Source: Escherichia coli
GTDB lineage: Bacteria; Pseudomonadota; Gammaproteobacteria; Enterobacterales; Enterobacteriaceae
Strand: one strand, 5' to 3'
NCBI RefSeq assembly: GCF_003334255.1
Contig: NZ_QOWU01000087.1
Length of the DNA: 9,590 nt
In this document: positions 1 through 8,915 of the stretch, one piece after another
How the letters are laid out: the number at the start of each line of letters is the position of its first letter
How positions within the stretch are numbered: the first letter of the stretch is position 1
Notes under the pieces: model-generated
What the model was told of the DNA's origin: nothing
What the model saw: only the letters and a program-made list of their open reading frames with translations
The model's database searches: none
Made by a program: the position numbers and the translations under genes

Positions 1-79
1 AGTTATCGTGAGAGTAATTCATCGGCACGTTAAATCATATCAGGCGTAATACCACAACCCTTAAGTTAGCGCTTATGGG
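1..79. repeat. Left terminal inverted repeat, 79 bp, exact reverse complement of 9512-9590
   Basis: Reverse-complementing 9512-9590 by hand reproduces bases 1-79 with no mismatch. The match breaks at position 80 (g on the left, t at 9511 on the right). Beyond that there is a weaker imperfect match (left gtaaaacccc versus the reverse complement of right gggggttttt). Confidence 0.93.
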
Positions 80-109
80 GTAAAACCCCGCGTACTGAAT
101 TGTGATGGT

Positions 110-260
110 TTGGTCTCCTGCACCCTTTTTTAATTTATATTGTTTATGTGAATATTATGCCTATGTTTATTATTCATATATATTACGGATGAAAATTATT
201 TGATTATTCATAATGTAAATATTTTATTGAATGATATATATCACAGATAATTTTTAATAT
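110..260 (+). promoter_or_regulatory. AT-rich region upstream of cas3, putative promoter and possible nucleoid-protein binding region
   Basis: A long, very AT-rich run (ttttttaatttatattgtttatgtgaatattatgcc...cacagataatttttaatat) lies directly 5' of the cas3 ATG and contains several TATAAT-like hexamers. No specific -35/-10 pair can be assigned with confidence. A regulatory role is inferred by analogy to H-NS-silenced cas promoters in Enterobacteriaceae. Confidence 0.4.
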
Positions 261-2960
261 ATGCGTAAATATCCTTTAAGTTTACTGAAGGATAAAAATA
301 TTGTGACTTTTTTTGATTTCTGGGGAAAAACCCGACGCGGCGAGAAAGACGGGGGCGACGACTATCACCTTCTTTGCTGGCATTCGCTGGATGTAGCCGC
401 GATGGGCTATTTAATGGTTAAAAGAAATTGCTTCGGGCTGGCTGATTATTTTCGTCAATTAGGGATTTCTGACAAGGAACAGGCGGCTCAATTTTTCGCC
501 TGGTTGCTGTGCTGGCACGATATTGGAAAATTTGCCCGCTCTTTTCAACAACTTTACCTGCCCCCTGAACTCAAGATTCAGGAAGGTGCCAGAAAAAATT
601 ACGAAAAAATCTCTCATTCAACGCTGGGCTACTGGTTGTGGAATCATTATTTAAGTGAATGTCAGGAGTTACTTCCTTCATCTTCGCTCTCTCCGCGCAA
701 ACTTAGGCGAGTGATAGAAATGTGGATGCCCGTGACGACAGGGCATCATGGTCGGCCCCCTGATCGTATGGATGAATTGGATAATTTTCTGCCTGAAGAC
801 AAAGCTGCAGCACGAGATTTTCTCCTTGAAATCAAACCACTGTTTCCGCTCATAGAGATCCCCGCATTCTGGGATGATGATGAGGGCATTGAACTTATAA
901 AACACCTTTCCTGGTATATCTCTGCAACCGTCGTGCTCGCAGACTGGACGGGTTCGTCAACGCGATTTTTTCCACGCGTCGCACACCCAATGGATATTAA
1001 AGGTTACTGGCAGAAAACTTTAATTCAGGCTCAAAACGCCTTAACCGTCTTTCCTCTAAAAGCAAAAGTCGCGCCTTTCAACGGAATTAATACGCTGTTT
1101 CCTTTTATTGAGAATCCGACACCGTTACAGCAAAAGGTGCTGGATCTGGATATCAGCCAGCAAGGACCGCAGTTATTTATTCTGGAAGATGTGACTGGCG
1201 CAGGTAAAACAGAAGCGGCGCTTATCCTGGCGCACAGGTTGATAGCTGCGGGGAAAGCTCAGGGGCTGTTTTTTGGTCTGCCAACAATGGCAACGGCCAA
1301 TGCCATGTACGATCGGCTGGTCAAAACCTGGCTTGCTTTCTATTCGCCAGAATCCCGCCCCAGCCTGGTGCTGGCACATAGTGCCCGCACATTAATGGAC
1401 CGCTTTAATGAATCACTCTGGTCTGGTGATTTAGTCGGGTCAGAAGAACCGGATGAACAAACGTTCAGTCAGGGATGTGCGGCCTGGTTTGCCGACAGTA
1501 ACAAGAAGGCGTTGCTGGCTGAAATTGGCGTCGGCACGCTGGATCAGGCGATGATGGCGGTGATGCCGTTCAAACATAATAATCTGCGGCTTCTGGGGCT
1601 GAGTAACAAAATCCTGCTGGCTGATGAGATCCACGCCTGTGACGCTTACATGTCGTGCATTCTTGAAGGGTTGATCGAGCGGCAGGCGCGTGGCGGAAAC
1701 AGCGTTATTTTGCTTTCTGCCACGTTATCTCAACAGCAGCGCGACAAACTCGTCGCTGCCTTTGCGCGGGGTACAGAGGGCCAGCAAGAAGCTCCGTTCC
1801 TGGAAAAGGATGATTACCCCTGGCTGACGCATGTCACGAAATCCGATGTGAACTCACACCGGGTAGCGACGCGCAAAGACGTTGAGCGTAGCGTCAGCGT
1901 GGGTTGGCTTCATAGTGAACAAGAGTGTATTGCGCGTATCGAATCGGCGGTAAGTCAGGGGAAATGCATCGCCTGGATCCGGAATTCTGTCGATGACGCT
2001 ATTAAGGTTCATCGTCAGCTGCTTGCCCGCGGCGTCATTCCTGCTTCCAGCCTTTCACTTTTTCATAGCCGCTTTGCTTTTAGCGATCGCCAGCGAATTG
2101 AAACGGAAACGCTGGCACGCTTTGGTAAATATTGTAGTTTACAGAGAGCGTCGCAAGTCATTGTTTGTACACAAGTAATTGAGCAAAGCGTGGATATTGA
2201 CCTGGACGAAATGATCTCCGACCTGGCCCCTGTTGATTTGCTGATTCAGCGAGCAGGACGATTACAGCGGCATATCCGCGATATTAATGGTCAGTTAAAG
2301 CGTGACGGAAAGGACGAGCGTTCCCCCCCTGAATTGCTGATTCTGGCTCCCGTCTGGGACGACTCTCCTGGCGACGAATGGTTTGGCAGTGCCATGCGTA
2401 ACAGTGCATTTGTCTATCCCGATCATGGGCGAATCTGGCTGACGCAGCGTGTGCTGCGTGAGCAAGGTGCTATTCAGATGCCACACGCAGCCCGGCTTCT
2501 TATTGAATCCGTCTACGGTGAGGACGTGGTAATGCCGGAAGGATTTGCCCGCAGCGAGCAGGAGCAAGTGGGCAAATATTACTGTGATCGCGCAATGGCT
2601 AAAAAGTTTGTGCTGAACTTCAGGCCCGGCTATGCCGCCAATATCAACGATTACCTCCCGGAAAAACTGTCGACACGTCTGGCTGAGGAGTCTGTTTCCC
2701 TGTGGCTGGCTACCTGTATTGACGGTGTGGTGAAGCCTTATGCCACCGGTGCTCACGCATGGGAAATGAGCGTTGTCAGAGTGCGCCGGAGCTGGTGGAA
2801 AAAACATCGGGATGAGTTTTCTTTACTGGAGGGAGAGGCGTTCAGGCTGTGGTGCATTGAACAGCGACAAGATCCGGAGATGGCAAACGTGATTTTAGTC
2901 AACGATGACGAAAGTTGCGGGTATTCGGCTACGGAAGGATTGATTGGCAAGGTTGGTTGA
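261..2960 (+). CDS. cas3: Cas3, type I HD-nuclease / SF2 helicase
   Basis: 899-aa ORF. The N-terminal HD domain shows HLLCWHSLDVA and CWHDIGK (HD motif). Helicase motifs follow: Walker A TGAGKTEAA, motif II LLADEIHACD, SAT, and motif VI QRAGRLQRH. It sits at the head of a cas operon. The start at 261 has no obvious Shine-Dalgarno, so the start codon is less certain than the stop. Confidence 0.93.
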   Translation: MRKYPLSLLKDKNIVTFFDFWGKTRRGEKDGGDDYHLLCWHSLDVAAMGYLMVKRNCFGLADYFRQLGISDKEQAAQFFAWLLCWHDIGKFARSFQQLYLPPELKIQEGARKNYEKISHSTLGYWLWNHYLSECQELLPSSSLSPRKLRRVIEMWMPVTTGHHGRPPDRMDELDNFLPEDKAAARDFLLEIKPLFPLIEIPAFWDDDEGIELIKHLSWYISATVVLADWTGSSTRFFPRVAHPMDIKGYWQKTLIQAQNALTVFPLKAKVAPFNGINTLFPFIENPTPLQQKVLDLDISQQGPQLFILEDVTGAGKTEAALILAHRLIAAGKAQGLFFGLPTMATANAMYDRLVKTWLAFYSPESRPSLVLAHSARTLMDRFNESLWSGDLVGSEEPDEQTFSQGCAAWFADSNKKALLAEIGVGTLDQAMMAVMPFKHNNLRLLGLSNKILLADEIHACDAYMSCILEGLIERQARGGNSVILLSATLSQQQRDKLVAAFARGTEGQQEAPFLEKDDYPWLTHVTKSDVNSHRVATRKDVERSVSVGWLHSEQECIARIESAVSQGKCIAWIRNSVDDAIKVHRQLLARGVIPASSLSLFHSRFAFSDRQRIETETLARFGKYCSLQRASQVIVCTQVIEQSVDIDLDEMISDLAPVDLLIQRAGRLQRHIRDINGQLKRDGKDERSPPELLILAPVWDDSPGDEWFGSAMRNSAFVYPDHGRIWLTQRVLREQGAIQMPHAARLLIESVYGEDVVMPEGFARSEQEQVGKYYCDRAMAKKFVLNFRPGYAANINDYLPEKLSTRLAEESVSLWLATCIDGVVKPYATGAHAWEMSVVRVRRSWWKKHRDEFSLLEGEAFRLWCIEQRQDPEMANVILVNDDESCGYSATEGLIGKVG

Positions 2961-3057
2961 GATGTCTGCGACAGGACTCTCTGAATAGTTGATACACCGA
3001 AAAGGATGGAAAGATGGACAACCGACCTGGGATGGTCTTTTTTACGAGAGGATGCGT

Positions 3058-4620
3058 ATGAACTCGTTTTCACTTCTGACAACCCCGTGGTTGCCCGTTC
3101 GTTTTAAAGACGGAACGACAGGCAAACTGGCGCCAGTCGATCTGGCGGATGAAAATGTTGTCGATATTTCTGCGCCGCGGGCAGATCTCCAGGGTGCGGT
3201 ATGGCAGTTTTTGCTGGGGCTACTACAAACCAGCTTCGCGCCAAAAGATCATCGTCGTTGGGATGATATCTGGGAAGACGGACTGGAAGCTGAAAAGCTA
3301 CGGGAAGCATTGCAGTCATTAGAACATGCTTTCCAGTTTGGGCCAGATTCCCCTTCATTTATGCAGGATTTCGAGGCGCTCACCGGAGATAAAGTTCCGG
3401 TCGCTTCGCTACTGCCTGAGATTCCCGGCGCTCAAACAACGAAGTTTAATAAAGACCACTTTATCAAGCGTGGTGTAACGGAATACCTGTGCCCACATTG
3501 TTCTGCGTTAGCTCTGTTCTCCCTACAGTTGAATGCGCCGTCAGGTGGCAAAGGCTACCGCACCGGTTTACGCGGCGGTGGGCCGATGACCACTCTGATT
3601 GAATTACAGGAATATCAGGGTAATCAACAAACTCCCTTGTGGCGCAAACTGTGGATCAATGTCATGCCGCAGGATGAAGCCGATTTACCGCTACCCAAAA
3701 AATTTGACGATCTGGTTTTCCCCTGGCTTGGCCCGACGCGCACCAGCGAACTGGCCGGTGCGGTGGTAACCGATGAGCAGGTCAATAAACTCCAGGCGTA
3801 CTGGGGAATGCCTCGCCGTATTCGTATTGATTTTAATACCACGACAGTCGGCAACTGCGATATTTGCGGTGAGCAGAGCGACGCGCTCCTGAGCCTGATG
3901 ACGACCAAAAATTACGGTGCGAATTATGCCATGTGGCAGCATCCCTTAACGCCTTACCGTGTACCACTTAAAGAGGGTGGCGAGTTTTACTCCGTTAAAC
4001 CACAACCGGGCGGTTTAATCTGGCGTGACTGGTTAGGCCTTATCGAAACGGGTAAATCAGAAAACAATACGGAACTTCCCGCGCTGGTGGTGAAACTCTT
4101 CAATGCCAGCAGTCTCAAGCAGGCAAAAGTGGGCCTGTGGGGATTTGGCTATGATTTCGACAACATGAAAGCGCGCTGTTGGTACGAACACCATTTCCCG
4201 CTGCTGCTCGATAAAAAAGAAGGTCAGATACCGAAGCTGCGGCTGGCTGCGCAAACAGCTTCACGGATTCTAAGTCTGTTACGGAGTGCATTGAAAGAAG
4301 CATGGTTCTCCGATCCAAAAGGTGCAAGGGGTGATTTTAGTTTTGTGGATATCGACTTCTGGAACAAAACTCAGCATCGCTTTCTGAGGTTAGTGCGCCA
4401 AATTGAAGAAGGTCAGGATGCGGATGAATTACTCAGCAAATGGAATAAGGAAATTTGGTTATTCGCACGTCAGGATTTTGACGAGCGTGTATTCACCAAT
4501 CCTTATGAGCCCGTTGATCTGGAACGCGTCATGACCGCGCGCAAGAAATATTTTACAACATCGGCGGAGAAGCAAAGTGCTAAAGCCGCCAGGGAGAAAA
4601 AGCAGGAGGCTGCTGAATGA
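3058..4620 (+). CDS. casA: Cse1/CasA, large subunit of the type I-E Cascade complex
   Basis: A large ORF immediately after cas3 and before cse2, in the conserved I-E order. I chose the ATG at 3058 (MNSFSLLTTPWLPVRF...) because GAGAGG lies 7 nt upstream as a Shine-Dalgarno. The ORF-track start at 2989 lacks one. The stop TGA at 4618-4620 overlaps the casB ATG. Confidence 0.88.
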   Translation: MNSFSLLTTPWLPVRFKDGTTGKLAPVDLADENVVDISAPRADLQGAVWQFLLGLLQTSFAPKDHRRWDDIWEDGLEAEKLREALQSLEHAFQFGPDSPSFMQDFEALTGDKVPVASLLPEIPGAQTTKFNKDHFIKRGVTEYLCPHCSALALFSLQLNAPSGGKGYRTGLRGGGPMTTLIELQEYQGNQQTPLWRKLWINVMPQDEADLPLPKKFDDLVFPWLGPTRTSELAGAVVTDEQVNKLQAYWGMPRRIRIDFNTTTVGNCDICGEQSDALLSLMTTKNYGANYAMWQHPLTPYRVPLKEGGEFYSVKPQPGGLIWRDWLGLIETGKSENNTELPALVVKLFNASSLKQAKVGLWGFGYDFDNMKARCWYEHHFPLLLDKKEGQIPKLRLAAQTASRILSLLRSALKEAWFSDPKGARGDFSFVDIDFWNKTQHRFLRLVRQIEEGQDADELLSKWNKEIWLFARQDFDERVFTNPYEPVDLERVMTARKKYFTTSAEKQSAKAAREKKQEAAE

Positions 4621-5153
4621 GTATTGTAAAAGAGGAGCACAAAGCCACGCTGCGCAAATGGCACGAGGAATTGCAGGAGAAACGTGGCGAACGTGCCAGT
4701 CTGCGGCGTAGTACGACGGTTAATGATGTTTGTCTGACGGATGGATTTCGCCTGTTTCTGAAGAACAGACAAATAAAGTGGCAGGATGAACCTGAGTGGC
4801 GTATCACCGCACTGGCGCTGATAGCCGCAGTTAGCGCCAATGTTAAAGCTATTGATGAACGGCAGCCTTTTGCCGCGCAGCTGGCGGCGGTAATGTCAAA
4901 GGGGCGTTTTACTCGTCTGTCGGCAGTAAAAACACCGGATGAATTACTGCGCCAGTTACGCCGCGCAGTCAGATTATTAAACGGTTCCGTCAATCTTGAC
5001 TCTCTGGCAGAGGGGGTCTTCCGTTGGTGCCAGGAGAGCGACGACCTGCTCAATCATCACCGCCGCCAGCAGCGGCCAACCGAATTTATCCGTATCCGCT
5101 GGGCGCTGGAATATTACCAGGCTGGCGACGCCGATAACGAACAAAATCAATAA
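4617..5153 (+). CDS. casB: Cse2/CasB, small subunit of Cascade
   Basis: 178-aa ORF in the expected position between cse1 and cas7. AGGAGG lies at 4604-4609, and the ATGA overlap with the casA stop indicates translational coupling. The assignment rests mainly on size and synteny. The sequence is not close to K-12 CasB as I recall it. Confidence 0.8.
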   Translation: MSIVKEEHKATLRKWHEELQEKRGERASLRRSTTVNDVCLTDGFRLFLKNRQIKWQDEPEWRITALALIAAVSANVKAIDERQPFAAQLAAVMSKGRFTRLSAVKTPDELLRQLRRAVRLLNGSVNLDSLAEGVFRWCQESDDLLNHHRRQQRPTEFIRIRWALEYYQAGDADNEQNQ

Positions 5154-5164
5154 AGGACTATCTC

Positions 5165-6220
5165 ATGACAACATTTATTCAGCTTCATTTGTTAACCGCT
5201 TACCCTGCTGCCAACCTTAACCGTGATGATACCGGTGCGCCAAAAACTGTGGTGCTGGGTGGAGCAACGCGTCTGCGCGTTTCCTCGCAAAGTCTGAAAC
5301 GTGCGTGGCGCACTTCTGCACTTTTTGAACAGGCACTGGCGGGCCATATTGGTATTCGCAGTGGGCGTATTGCGCGTGAGGCGGCAACTATCCTGATTGA
5401 GAAAGGAATCGAAGAGAAAAAAGCCATCGAATGGGCGGCAAAAATTGCAGATTATCTTGGGAAAGCTAAAAACGACAAAAAACCAAAAGATCCGCTCACT
5501 AACGCCGAAACTGAACAGTTAGTCCATATCAGCCCGGCAGAATTTGACGCCGTAAAAGTGCTGGCCCATCAGCTTGCAGAAGAAAAGCGCGCGCCAAAAG
5601 AGGAAGATCTCGCGTTGTTACGCAAAGACCGTATGGCGGTAGATATTGCCATGTTTGGTCGTATGCTGGCGAATAAACCCGAGTTTAATGTTGAAGCCGC
5701 CTGCCAGGTAGCGCACGCATTTGGTGTCAGTGAAACGATTGTCGAAGATGATTTTTTCACCGCCGTTGATGATTTGCGCCAGGCTTCTGAAGATGCCGGT
5801 GCCGGGCATCTTGGTGAAACCGGATTCGGTTCTGCACTGTTCTACACCTATATCTGCATTGATAAAGATCTGCTGGTCGAAAACCTTGGCGGTGACGAAG
5901 CGTTAGCTAATCAGACCATACGTGCCTTTACGGAAGCCGCACTTAAAGTCTCCCCAACCGGCAAACAGAACAGCTTTGCCAGCCGTGCCTACGCCTCCTG
6001 GGCGCTGGCAGAAAAAGGCACCGATCAACCGCGTTCTCTGGCGGCAGCTTTCTATGAACCCATTAATGGCACCCGTCAGTTAGAGGTGGCGGTGCAGCGT
6101 ATTACAACTCTTCGCGAAAATATGAATACGGTCTACGAACAGAAGACCGATTACGCAAGTTTTGACGTGATGAACAAACAGGGAAGCATGAAGGACGTGC
6201 TGGACTTTATCTGCGCGTAA
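5165..6220 (+). CDS. casC: Cas7e/CasC, Cascade backbone subunit
   Basis: 351 aa. The N-terminus (LLTAYPAANLNRDDTGAPKTVVLGGATRLRVSSQSLKRAWR) matches the conserved Cas7e N-terminal motif (..LNRDD...GG.RR.R.SSQSLKRA.R). AAAGGA lies upstream as a Shine-Dalgarno. Confidence 0.92.
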   Translation: MTTFIQLHLLTAYPAANLNRDDTGAPKTVVLGGATRLRVSSQSLKRAWRTSALFEQALAGHIGIRSGRIAREAATILIEKGIEEKKAIEWAAKIADYLGKAKNDKKPKDPLTNAETEQLVHISPAEFDAVKVLAHQLAEEKRAPKEEDLALLRKDRMAVDIAMFGRMLANKPEFNVEAACQVAHAFGVSETIVEDDFFTAVDDLRQASEDAGAGHLGETGFGSALFYTYICIDKDLLVENLGGDEALANQTIRAFTEAALKVSPTGKQNSFASRAYASWALAEKGTDQPRSLAAAFYEPINGTRQLEVAVQRITTLRENMNTVYEQKTDYASFDVMNKQGSMKDVLDFICA

Positions 6221-6230
6221 GGGGCGGCTT

Positions 6231-6977
6231 ATGAGCCAATATCTGATTTTTCAGCTTCATGGGCCGATGGCGTCCTGGGGTGTCGATGCTCCAGGTGAAG
6301 TTCGTCATACCCATGAACTTCCTTCGCGCTCAGCATTGCTGGGGCTACTGGCTGCCGGGGTAGGGATTCGGCGTGATGATACCGAACGCTTAAACGCGTT
6401 TAATCGCCACTATTCACTGGTGGTTTGCGCCAGCCGTAACCCGCGCTGGGCACGGGATTATCACACGGTCCAGATGCCAAAAGAGGTGCGTAAAGCACGT
6501 TATTTCAGCCGTCGCGAAGAGTTGAGCGACCCTGAGCTTTTGAGCGCGATTATCTCCCGGCGCGACTACTACACCGATGCCTGGTGGATGGTGGCGGTGG
6601 CAACAACCCCCGATGCGCCTTACAGCCTCGAACAGTTGCAGGACGGTTTACGCCATCCGGTTTTTCCGCTTTATCTGGGGCGAAAAAGTCATCCGCTGGC
6701 GTTACCACTTGCGCCGTTACTGCTCGAAGGCAACGCGTCTGATGTCTTACGTAACGCATACCAACAGTATCAGGATCGTTTCCGCGAACTGAAAGTCTCA
6801 CTCCCGAAACTTCAGGATGAATGCTGGTGGGAAGGGGAGCACGATGGTTTGGTCGCAAGCAAAATATTACGCCGCCGGGATGTTCCTTTAAATCGTCAGC
6901 AGTGGCTGTTTGGGGAACGCACCATCAATCAGGGGCCGTGGCTCAGCAAGGAGGAACCATGTACCTCTCAAGAATAA
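6231..6977 (+). CDS. casD: Cas5e/CasD, Cascade subunit
   Basis: 248 aa. The N-terminus (YLIFQLHGPMASWG...SALLGLLAAGVGIRRDD) closely parallels the K-12 CasD N-terminus as I recall it (YLILRLAGPMQAWG...SGLLGLLGACLGIQRDD). It sits in the correct operon position. Confidence 0.92.
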   Translation: MSQYLIFQLHGPMASWGVDAPGEVRHTHELPSRSALLGLLAAGVGIRRDDTERLNAFNRHYSLVVCASRNPRWARDYHTVQMPKEVRKARYFSRREELSDPELLSAIISRRDYYTDAWWMVAVATTPDAPYSLEQLQDGLRHPVFPLYLGRKSHPLALPLAPLLLEGNASDVLRNAYQQYQDRFRELKVSLPKLQDECWWEGEHDGLVASKILRRRDVPLNRQQWLFGERTINQGPWLSKEEPCTSQE

Positions 6978-7605
6978 CCTTACATACCGGCCAGCTTTCG
7001 CCTGCGCAGTTGCTGCATCTGGTGGATCGCGGTGAATATGTGATGCATCAGTGGTTGTGGGATCTCTTCCCTGGCGGCAAAGAAAGGCAATTTCTTTATC
7101 GTCGGGAAGAACTCCAGGGCGCGTTTCGCTTTTTTGTCCTCTCGCAGGAACGCCCGGCGGAAAGTGAAACTTTCACCATCGAATGCCGGTCATTTACGCC
7201 CGAGCTGAGTACCGGACAACAACTTTGTTTCAACCTGCGGGCGAATCCAACAATCTGTAAAGCGGGCAAGCGCCACGATCTGCTGATGGAGGCGAAACGG
7301 CAGGTGAGGGGACAGGCGGAAGGAAGTGATGTCTGGTTGCATCAACAACAGGCGGCGCTGGACTGGCTGGCAGCGCAGGGGGAAAGAAGTGGTTTTACAC
7401 TACTGGATACCTCGGTTGATGCCTACCGACAACAACAACTCCGGCGGGAAAACTCCTGGCAACTGATCCAGTTCAGTAGTGTGGATTATACGGGGATGCT
7501 TACGGTCACCGATCCTGGGTTATTTCTGCAACGTCTCAGTCAGGGGTATGGCAAAAGCCGGGCGTTCGGTTGTGGTCTGATGCTGATCAAACCTGGAGCA
7601 GAGGC

Positions 7606-7609
<4 letters not shown>
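6959..7609 (+). CDS. casE: Cas6e/CasE, pre-crRNA endoribonuclease
   Basis: I chose the internal ATG at 6959 (MYLSRITL...), which has AAGGAGG at 6948-6954. Cas6e proteins begin MYLS.., and this gives about 216 aa rather than the 262-aa track ORF. The C-terminal glycine-rich motif GYGKSRAFGCGLM is typical of Cas6e. The gene overlaps the casD 3' end by 19 bp. Confidence 0.88.
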
Positions 7610-8819
<1,210 letters not shown>

Positions 8820-8915
8820 GTTATCCGTTCTTTAAAAATAAGGAAATGTTTTAATTTAGTTGGTAGATTGTTGATGCGGAATAAATTTGTTTAAAAACAG
8901 TTATGTATGCTTAGT
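8820..8915 (+). promoter_or_regulatory. CRISPR leader, AT-rich, expected to hold the pre-crRNA promoter and integration signals
   Basis: A 96-bp AT-rich stretch between the cas2 stop and the first repeat (ttatccgttctttaaaaataaggaaatgttttaatttagttggtagattgttgatgcggaataaatttgtttaaaaacagttatgtatgcttagt). Its position and composition are typical of I-E leaders. No individual promoter or IHF site is assigned. Confidence 0.75.

Follow-up and report, generated by a model that had tools for sequence, protein, structure and literature searches.

A short cas3-cse1 spacer and an AT-rich region upstream of cas3 in the commoner type I-E CRISPR-Cas cassette of Escherichia coli

Introduction

From where are the type I-E cas genes of E. 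coli transcribed when cas3 is followed by cse1 after only a short intergenic spacer? The regulation of type I-E systems in E. coli is known almost wholly from strain K-12, including the roles of H-NS, LeuO, CRP, SlyA and LrhA, the limiting level of Cas3, and a CreR-type mini-array. In K-12, cas3 is transcribed from a promoter of its own, and Cascade relies on Pcas, a second promoter controlled by H-NS, LeuO and CRP, together with the CreR-type mini-CRISPR. The stretch of E. coli DNA analyzed here, 9,590 nucleotides in length and hereafter called the window, carries a cassette in which the DNA between cas3 and cse1 is short and of ordinary composition. The original prediction, made from the sequence alone, was that cas3 and the Cascade and adaptation genes might form one transcription unit read from an AT-rich region upstream of cas3, or that this variant might be regulated differently, and it proposed a comparison with the corresponding intergenic regions of K-12 and Salmonella. 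This comparison gave an AT-rich gap of 414 bp for K-12 and a gap of 11 bp for Salmonella.

The second type I-E cassette of E. coli has already been described as a variant (PMC12736100; PMC2886076). The layout itself is also known, being that of a typical type I-E operon, and in published surveys loci of this kind are termed contiguous, or typical type I-E (PMC7712790; PMC10120712). The slow evolution of the cas3-cse1 spacer, as judged by sequence comparison, is the new detail reported here.

Results

Gene map and prevalence of the cassette

The window matches the chromosome of E. coli strain 720632, with an identity of 100.0% over 1-3400. The gene order in the matching E. coli record is cysH, hok/gef, IS421, cas3, casA-casB-cas7e-cas5e-cas6e-cas1e-cas2e, CRISPR and iap, and its RefSeq annotation gives the same coordinates for cas3 and cse1 (100.0% over 1-3400; 99.8% over 2761-3257). 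The typical type I-E gene set is complete, from cas3 (HD and helicase) through cse1/cas8e to cas2e, followed by an array of 29-nt repeats with a period of 61 nt. The eight cas genes are co-oriented, with junctions of 97, -4, 11, 10, -19, -4 and -4 bp (Table 1). Among NCBIfam models, cas3_core and cas3_HD match cas3, and casA_cse1 matches cse1 at 610 bits over residues 5-509.

With presence defined as at least 80% coverage, the cas3-cse1 junction of the window was detected in 2424 (about 45%) and the K-12 junction in 1127 (about 21%) of the 5426 complete E. coli genomes. Of the two type I-E cassettes in E. coli, the window carries the more frequent one, which is related to cas-STM of Salmonella. 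A search of the plasmid collection with the junction returned only three E. coli records, all of chromosome size (4.8-4.9 Mb). A 7-kb contig of a Collinsella metagenome-assembled genome (MAG) carries cas3-cse1 97-98% identical to E. coli with the 97-bp gap, and is most likely misbinned E. coli DNA.

Table 1. Location of features within the window
Feature	Position	Strand	Remarks
IS421 (IS4-family) end	1..76	-	transposase start codon at 22; transcription away from cas3; RefSeq annotation
hok/gef 3' flank	77..132	+	half GC hairpin, then run ending CCCTTTTTT; pi 0.024
AT-rich block	133..302	+	GC about 0.15-0.2; sole candidate place for a cas3 promoter; probable H-NS target
cas3	261..2960	+	as annotated, 899 aa; likelier start GTG 303, with AAGGA 289-293
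cas3-cse1 spacer	2961..3057	+	97 bp; ordinary composition; purifying selection
Weak promoter-like match TTGATA-15 nt-(TGg)AAAGAT	2989..3015	+	sole match in spacer; about chance level
8-bp tandem duplication GATGGAAA	3005..3012	+	in E. coli; missing in E. albertii and Escherichia sp. MOD1
Motif CC(A/T)GGGATGG	3026..3035	+	recurs 25-60 nt before cse1 in five other genera
Shine-Dalgarno GAGAGGA of cse1	3046..3052	+	5 nt before ATG 3058; invariant
cse1/casA	3058..4620	+	520 aa; ATG start
cse2, cas7e, cas5e, cas6e, cas1e, cas2e	4617..8819	+	overlaps or at most 11 bp between them
CRISPR leader	8820..8915	+	AT-rich, GC 0.26; 29-nt repeat array from 8916

Composition and content of the cas3-cse1 spacer

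The gap had been described as 97 bp of ordinary composition with no obvious promoter-like AT-rich block, and the description holds in every part. The annotated cas3 ends at 2960 and the ATG of cse1 is at 3058. The GC content is 0.474, against 0.506 for the window, and the composition is ordinary because 22% of all 97-nt windows are equally or more AT-rich. In promoter scans with a position weight matrix (PWM), the stretch 2700-3065 scored no better than chance, in contrast to many sites within 130-260. No site matching the sigma-70 consensus at 9 or more of 12 positions was found on the plus strand of 1-3400, although consensus scans of this kind are blind to non-canonical and activator-dependent promoters.

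Other signals were also looked for. No terminator-like site was found within 2961-3057, the RNA fold of 2940-3075 gave no signal (z = -0.03), and an Rfam scan of the whole window gave no match. For CRISPR repeat-like sequence outside the array, the best ungapped match was 17/29, against 16-19 in shuffled sequences, a level at which gapped or very degenerate copies could escape; by the same scan, repeat-like sequence is absent from both 77-302 and 2961-3057. The scan was positive elsewhere, giving 19/29 in K-12 and 21-26/29 in three relatives. Since neither the spacer nor the region upstream of cas3 carries repeat-like sequence, a CreR-type autoregulatory element is absent from the window.

The size of the gap depends on the start of cse1. 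An open reading frame extends upstream from cse1 to an in-frame TTG at 2989, and a start there would reduce the real gap to 28 bp and make the 97 bp an artefact of annotation. We consider this hardly credible, and rejected the TTG as a start: ATG 3058 is preceded by GAGAGGA 5 nt upstream, the homologues in all genera start at the equivalent ATG with similarity from residue 1-4, the casA_cse1 model covers residues 5-509, and the 8-bp indel in E. albertii would shift the upstream frame. A 15-codon open reading frame (MDNRPGMVFFTRGCV) from ATG 3014 to TGA 3061 was likewise rejected as a gene, as it is not kept in other genera. Its TGA overlaps the ATG of cse1 (ATGA) and an AAGGA lies 7 nt upstream of it, probably by chance.

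The AT-rich region upstream of cas3

The claim that the only strongly AT-rich 5' region lies upstream of cas3 was confirmed. The GC content is 0.211 in 100-260 and 0.153 in 130-260, with a minimum of 0.14 in 80-nt windows, and the one other strongly AT-rich block is the CRISPR leader downstream of cas2. Compared with the GC content of cas3 (0.50), at least 100 bp of this DNA are far more AT-rich than the surrounding genes.

The start of cas3 is probably GTG 303 rather than the annotated ATG 261, and 261-302 is likely 5' untranslated. ATG 261 lacks a Shine-Dalgarno sequence, GTG 303 is preceded by AAGGA at 289-293, the similarity to all relatives begins at 303, and GTG 303 corresponds to the called GTG start of the 887-aa Cas3 of Salmonella. 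The segment 261-302 is invariant in 10 E. coli sequences (0/42 columns variable), and E. albertii diverges across it, with a frame break. With the start of cas3 at 303, the AT-rich upstream block therefore extends to about 133-302. Upstream of the invariant segment, 133-260 is hypervariable, with a diversity at least that of synonymous sites.

Among the promoter-like sites picked out in the AT-rich block by the PWM are TTAATT-17-TATTAT (130-158) and TTTATT-17-GATAAT (223-251), and many such matches are expected in any AT-rich DNA. H-NS prefers AT-rich DNA, and because of this preference and the composition of the block, the region before cas3 is probably bound and silenced by H-NS. The 10-mer nucleation motif of H-NS, TCGATAAATT, with up to 2 mismatches gave 14 matches against 10.4 expected, which is the chance level; one of them is located at 221-230.

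The hok/gef 3' flank is also kept in strains without cas genes, and folding it showed no structure besides the known GC hairpin. In other genomes the match to the window starts at position 77. IS421 is inserted 184 bp upstream of the annotated cas3 start, inside the loop of the GC hairpin that follows hok (CGCGGGGGTAAAACCCCGCG), with a 12-bp target duplication, GGGGTAAAACCC, at 6728-6739 of the fetched locus L001 and at 77-88 of the window. The insertion leaves the AT-rich block beside cas3 intact. The IS/flank junction is identical in E. albertii NBRC 107761, which suggests either an insertion hotspot or common ancestry of the segment.

Conservation of the spacer in Escherichia

The gap is exactly 97 bp in 10/10 E. 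coli (the window and nine genomes that span the range of identity). In E. albertii and Escherichia sp. MOD1, which lack the 8-bp tandem duplication, it is 89 bp. Diversity was determined for a sample of 12 distinct Escherichia sequences. In the spacer, pi is 0.046 and 15/89 columns are variable, while the 4-fold sites of cas3 and cse1 show a pi of 0.13-0.14 and 260/657 variable (Fisher p = 2e-5). The spacer also differed from local 4-fold sites (p = 1.4e-4) and within E. coli alone (13/97 columns variable vs 182/657 at 4-fold sites; p = 0.003). The spacer thus evolves about three times more slowly than synonymous (4-fold) sites, and purifying selection covers the whole of it, beyond the last 15 nt. 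This slower evolution indicates that the spacer carries a selected element in addition to the ribosome-binding site.

The longest invariant run of the spacer, 3029-3053, includes the Shine-Dalgarno sequence and a part of the CC(A/T)GGGATGG motif. This motif is found near the cse1 ribosome-binding site in six genera, with gaps of 97 to 862 bp that cannot be aligned elsewhere.

One way to account for this conservation is an internal promoter in the spacer or at the end of cas3, by which the Cascade and adaptation genes would be expressed at least partly independently of cas3, as in K-12, but from a compact promoter that is not AT-rich. The purifying selection, the fixed length in E. coli and the motif conserved near cse1 across genera would all fit such a promoter, and the spacer does contain TTGATA at 2989-2994 followed by an extended -10-like TGgAAAGAT at 3007-3015 (TGgAATGAT in some strains). 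The PWM score of this match, 7.03, exceeds the 99.9th percentile of the window (5.95), but among about 1800 tests in the scanned stretch such a score is expected by chance about once; the two elements are separated by only 15 nt and the -10 matches the consensus at 3/6 positions. In addition, the -10-like element arose from the E. coli-specific duplication and is missing in E. albertii and Escherichia sp., the related cassettes of Salmonella, Citrobacter and Phytobacter have only 11 bp at this junction, and the sigma-70 consensus scan found nothing. On this evidence an internal promoter is the chief rival to the operon reading favored below, with perhaps a one-in-four standing in our judgement.

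A broader proposal is that the spacer is a selected control element, acting either as a compact internal promoter or post-transcriptionally through CC(A/T)GGGATGG, and that it determines how much Cas3 is made relative to Cascade, whatever the activity of the AT-rich promoter upstream. We hold this to be speculative and somewhat less probable still. If it were correct, the spacer would stand in for the Pcas/CreR circuitry of K-12 by a mechanism so far undescribed.

The cas3-cse1 gap in relatives

The gap was surveyed by a Cse1 scan of species-representative genomes together with two Salmonella contigs. It is 11 bp in Salmonella enterica (cas-STM, beside sopD), Citrobacter youngae and Phytobacter, and -4 to 24 bp in distant Methanosarcinales relatives; gaps of these sizes are too short and therefore cannot hold a promoter. 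Longer gaps were found in Klebsiella indica (151 bp), Intestinirhabdus (176 bp), K. spallanzanii and Atlantibacter (about 500 bp each) and Chimaeribacter (862 bp). In the short-gap loci an AT-rich stretch is located upstream of cas3, with a minimum 80-nt GC of 0.14-0.25 against 0.50-0.54 for the genes. In the long-gap Atlantibacter and Chimaeribacter, the AT-rich stretch is within the gap; the upstream region of K. spallanzanii is cut by the contig end.

In the Methanosarcinales and Methanoperedenaceae genomes and MAGs, Cse1 is 35-40% and Cas3 36-39% identical to those of the window's cassette, and in the contigs that include cas3 this gene directly adjoins cse1. The similarity suggests inter-domain transfer of this I-E lineage. 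In Gilliamella of the bee gut, Cse1 is 43-46% identical and no cas3 was detected up to 5 kb upstream (tblastn E <= 1e-5); its cas3 is elsewhere in the locus, or too divergent for detection at that threshold.

In K. spallanzanii, Atlantibacter and Chimaeribacter, which have the three longest gaps, the gap opens with a strong hairpin at the cas3 stop, after which come antisense degenerate type I-E repeats. E. coli has neither such a strong hairpin nor an AT-rich stretch in its gap. The mini-array loci are located at 2165-2290 of L007 (K. spallanzanii), 4500-4710 of L010 (Atlantibacter), 4140-4475 of L011 (Chimaeribacter) and, for K-12, 9357-9571 of L002. A site matching the spacer-like segment is present within the same gap in Atlantibacter and Chimaeribacter, next to an AAG PAM and mismatched at positions 6 and 12 alone. 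The seed run measures 13 nt in Atlantibacter, where the maximum among 200 shuffles was 9, and 11 nt in Chimaeribacter, where shuffles reached 11 once. As a positive control, the same test recovered the published target of K-12; no mini-array target was found in K. spallanzanii. Judged by sequence, the mini-arrays of Atlantibacter and Chimaeribacter, and probably that of K. spallanzanii, belong to the CreR/regulatory class that Shmakov et al. (2023, PMC10120712) and Liu et al. (2023 preprint, 10.1101/2023.03.10.532045) described from the spacers between cas3 and cas8e.

K. spallanzanii and Atlantibacter also carry a conserved 32-aa basic/hydrophobic open reading frame (MEEKPNRYKRLFCRLMIRLGNKLSVSFQLSVR and MNIITPTYKRFICKLMFRLGSKLLLQFEFSIN), located after the mini-array and before cse1. 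Its sites are L007 2513-2611, L010 4845-4943 and L024 4878-4946, the copy in K. indica being truncated. The small open reading frames of the relatives gave no match in NCBIfam or PADLOC. The position resembles that of the creT toxins paired with creA.

These long gaps raise the possibility that the 97 bp in E. coli, except for the ribosome-binding site, is a functionless leftover of a longer regulatory spacer with a promoter, an antisense mini-CRISPR and a small open reading frame. Both ends of the spacer resemble, by eye, the ends of the 176-bp Intestinirhabdus gap, with a 15-nt blastn match of 93% at the 3' end. Only a degenerate version of the strong hairpin of the long-gap relatives follows the cas3 stop, and no repeat-like remnant is kept. 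A functionless leftover should not, however, show purifying selection over its entire extent, beyond the last 15 nt, nor an invariant length in E. coli, and the closest outgroups, Salmonella and Citrobacter, have 11 bp, so that the change could have been a deletion here or an insertion elsewhere. We regard this origin as improbable.

By blastn-short, 133-302 and 2961-3057 gave only chance AT-rich words (E >= 0.3) with the K-12 gap, and apart from the 15-nt stretch of Intestinirhabdus, no homology was detected between the AT-rich block or spacer and the Salmonella upstream region or the gaps of relatives.

Discussion

Transcriptional organization of the cassette

Based on these observations, we infer that the cassette is read as a single operon from cas3 to cas2, with its promoter or promoters in the AT-rich block; this is the reading we favor, with somewhat better than even confidence, because the gap is without a terminator, a fold signal, repeat-like sequence or a promoter above the chance level, and because related cassettes with short gaps likewise have their AT-rich DNA before cas3. 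cas3 would be the first gene of one cas3-cse1-cse2-cas7-cas5-cas6e-cas1-cas2 transcription unit. One or more promoters in the block of 85% AT that separates cas3 from the hok flank (about 133-302) would direct this unit, and H-NS most likely would bind and silence the block. RNA polymerase would read through the 97-bp spacer, which would form an intercistronic segment of the mRNA with another conserved element besides the ribosome-binding site of cse1. The genes for the nuclease, the surveillance complex and adaptation would then come on together. One point against the operon reading is that plain read-through needs no spacer evolving more slowly than 4-fold sites.

As for the original proposal of a single unit transcribed from upstream, it is still the best-supported reading and the contrast with K-12 is real, but its framing must be reversed, because the layout of the window is the usual one for type I-E systems and for E. 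coli, and K-12 belongs to the minority (the prevalence given above; PMC10120712).

Published observations that bear on co-transcription come from Salmonella and are indirect. Kushwaha et al. (2020, PMC7712790) describe the cas-STM genes as contiguous and give cas-STY a gap of 357 nt. In S. Typhimurium, cas3 is said to belong to the cas operon (bioRxiv 10.64898/2026.02.26.708173), and work on Salmonella treats it as the operon's first gene, whereas in S. Typhi cas3 is an independent unit (PMC8039139). In S. Enteritidis, replacement of cas3 increased the expression of cse1 by 20-fold and that of the other cas genes by about 8-9-fold (PMC7168661), in a different genus with an 11-bp gap and with possible read-through from the resistance cassette. 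A paper on H-NS and imipenem in K. pneumoniae is silent on operon structure, and our literature search found no transcript mapping of the E. coli variant carried by the window.

If co-transcription is true, the separate control of Cas3 known from K-12 need not hold for the majority of E. coli in nature, nor for non-typhoidal Salmonella. The regulatory rules of K-12 (Pcas, LeuO, CreR and a separately limited Cas3) should not be assumed for the commoner cassette, which, at about 45% of complete genomes, is entirely without the K-12 regulatory gap. This is a reason for caution in extrapolating from K-12, but it follows, as expected, from a known layout, and is not the description of a new kind of system.

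Comparison with known systems

The statement in the original prediction that the K-12 gap spans several hundred bp proved correct: the cas3-casA gap of MG1655 is AT-rich and, at 414 bp, not similarly short. It contains Pcas, an antisense promoter, sites for H-NS, LeuO and CRP, and a degenerate antisense mini-CRISPR (Pul et al. 2010 and Westra et al. 2010, as cited in PMC10120712). Both of the K-12-type features looked for in the window, a long AT-rich gap and homology to the Pcas region, are missing. The distribution of AT-rich DNA is reversed between the two: in K-12 it is inside the gap and the DNA upstream of cas3 is ordinary, whereas in the window it is upstream of cas3 and the gap is ordinary. 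The proteins are also far apart, with identities of 29% for Cas3 and 21% for Cse1. The two loci nevertheless share the chromosomal site (cysH ... iap) and the order of the type I-E genes, and each has, in one place or another, AT-rich promoter DNA that is presumably prone to H-NS binding. The CreR and mini-array systems involve the same junction of the locus, at which the window carries no such element.

The closest likeness is to cas-STM of Salmonella, with a Cse1 identity of 74-75%, the same gene order, cas3 directly before cse1, and a gap that is not AT-rich. The AT-rich regions upstream of cas3 show no homology, the neighbouring genes are different, being sopD in Salmonella and cysH-hok in E. 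coli, and the gap is 11 bp in Salmonella against 89-97 bp with extra conserved sequence in Escherichia. As in the window, however, the AT-rich DNA of cas-STM is located upstream of cas3, with a GC content of 0.32 and a minimum of 0.18-0.21.
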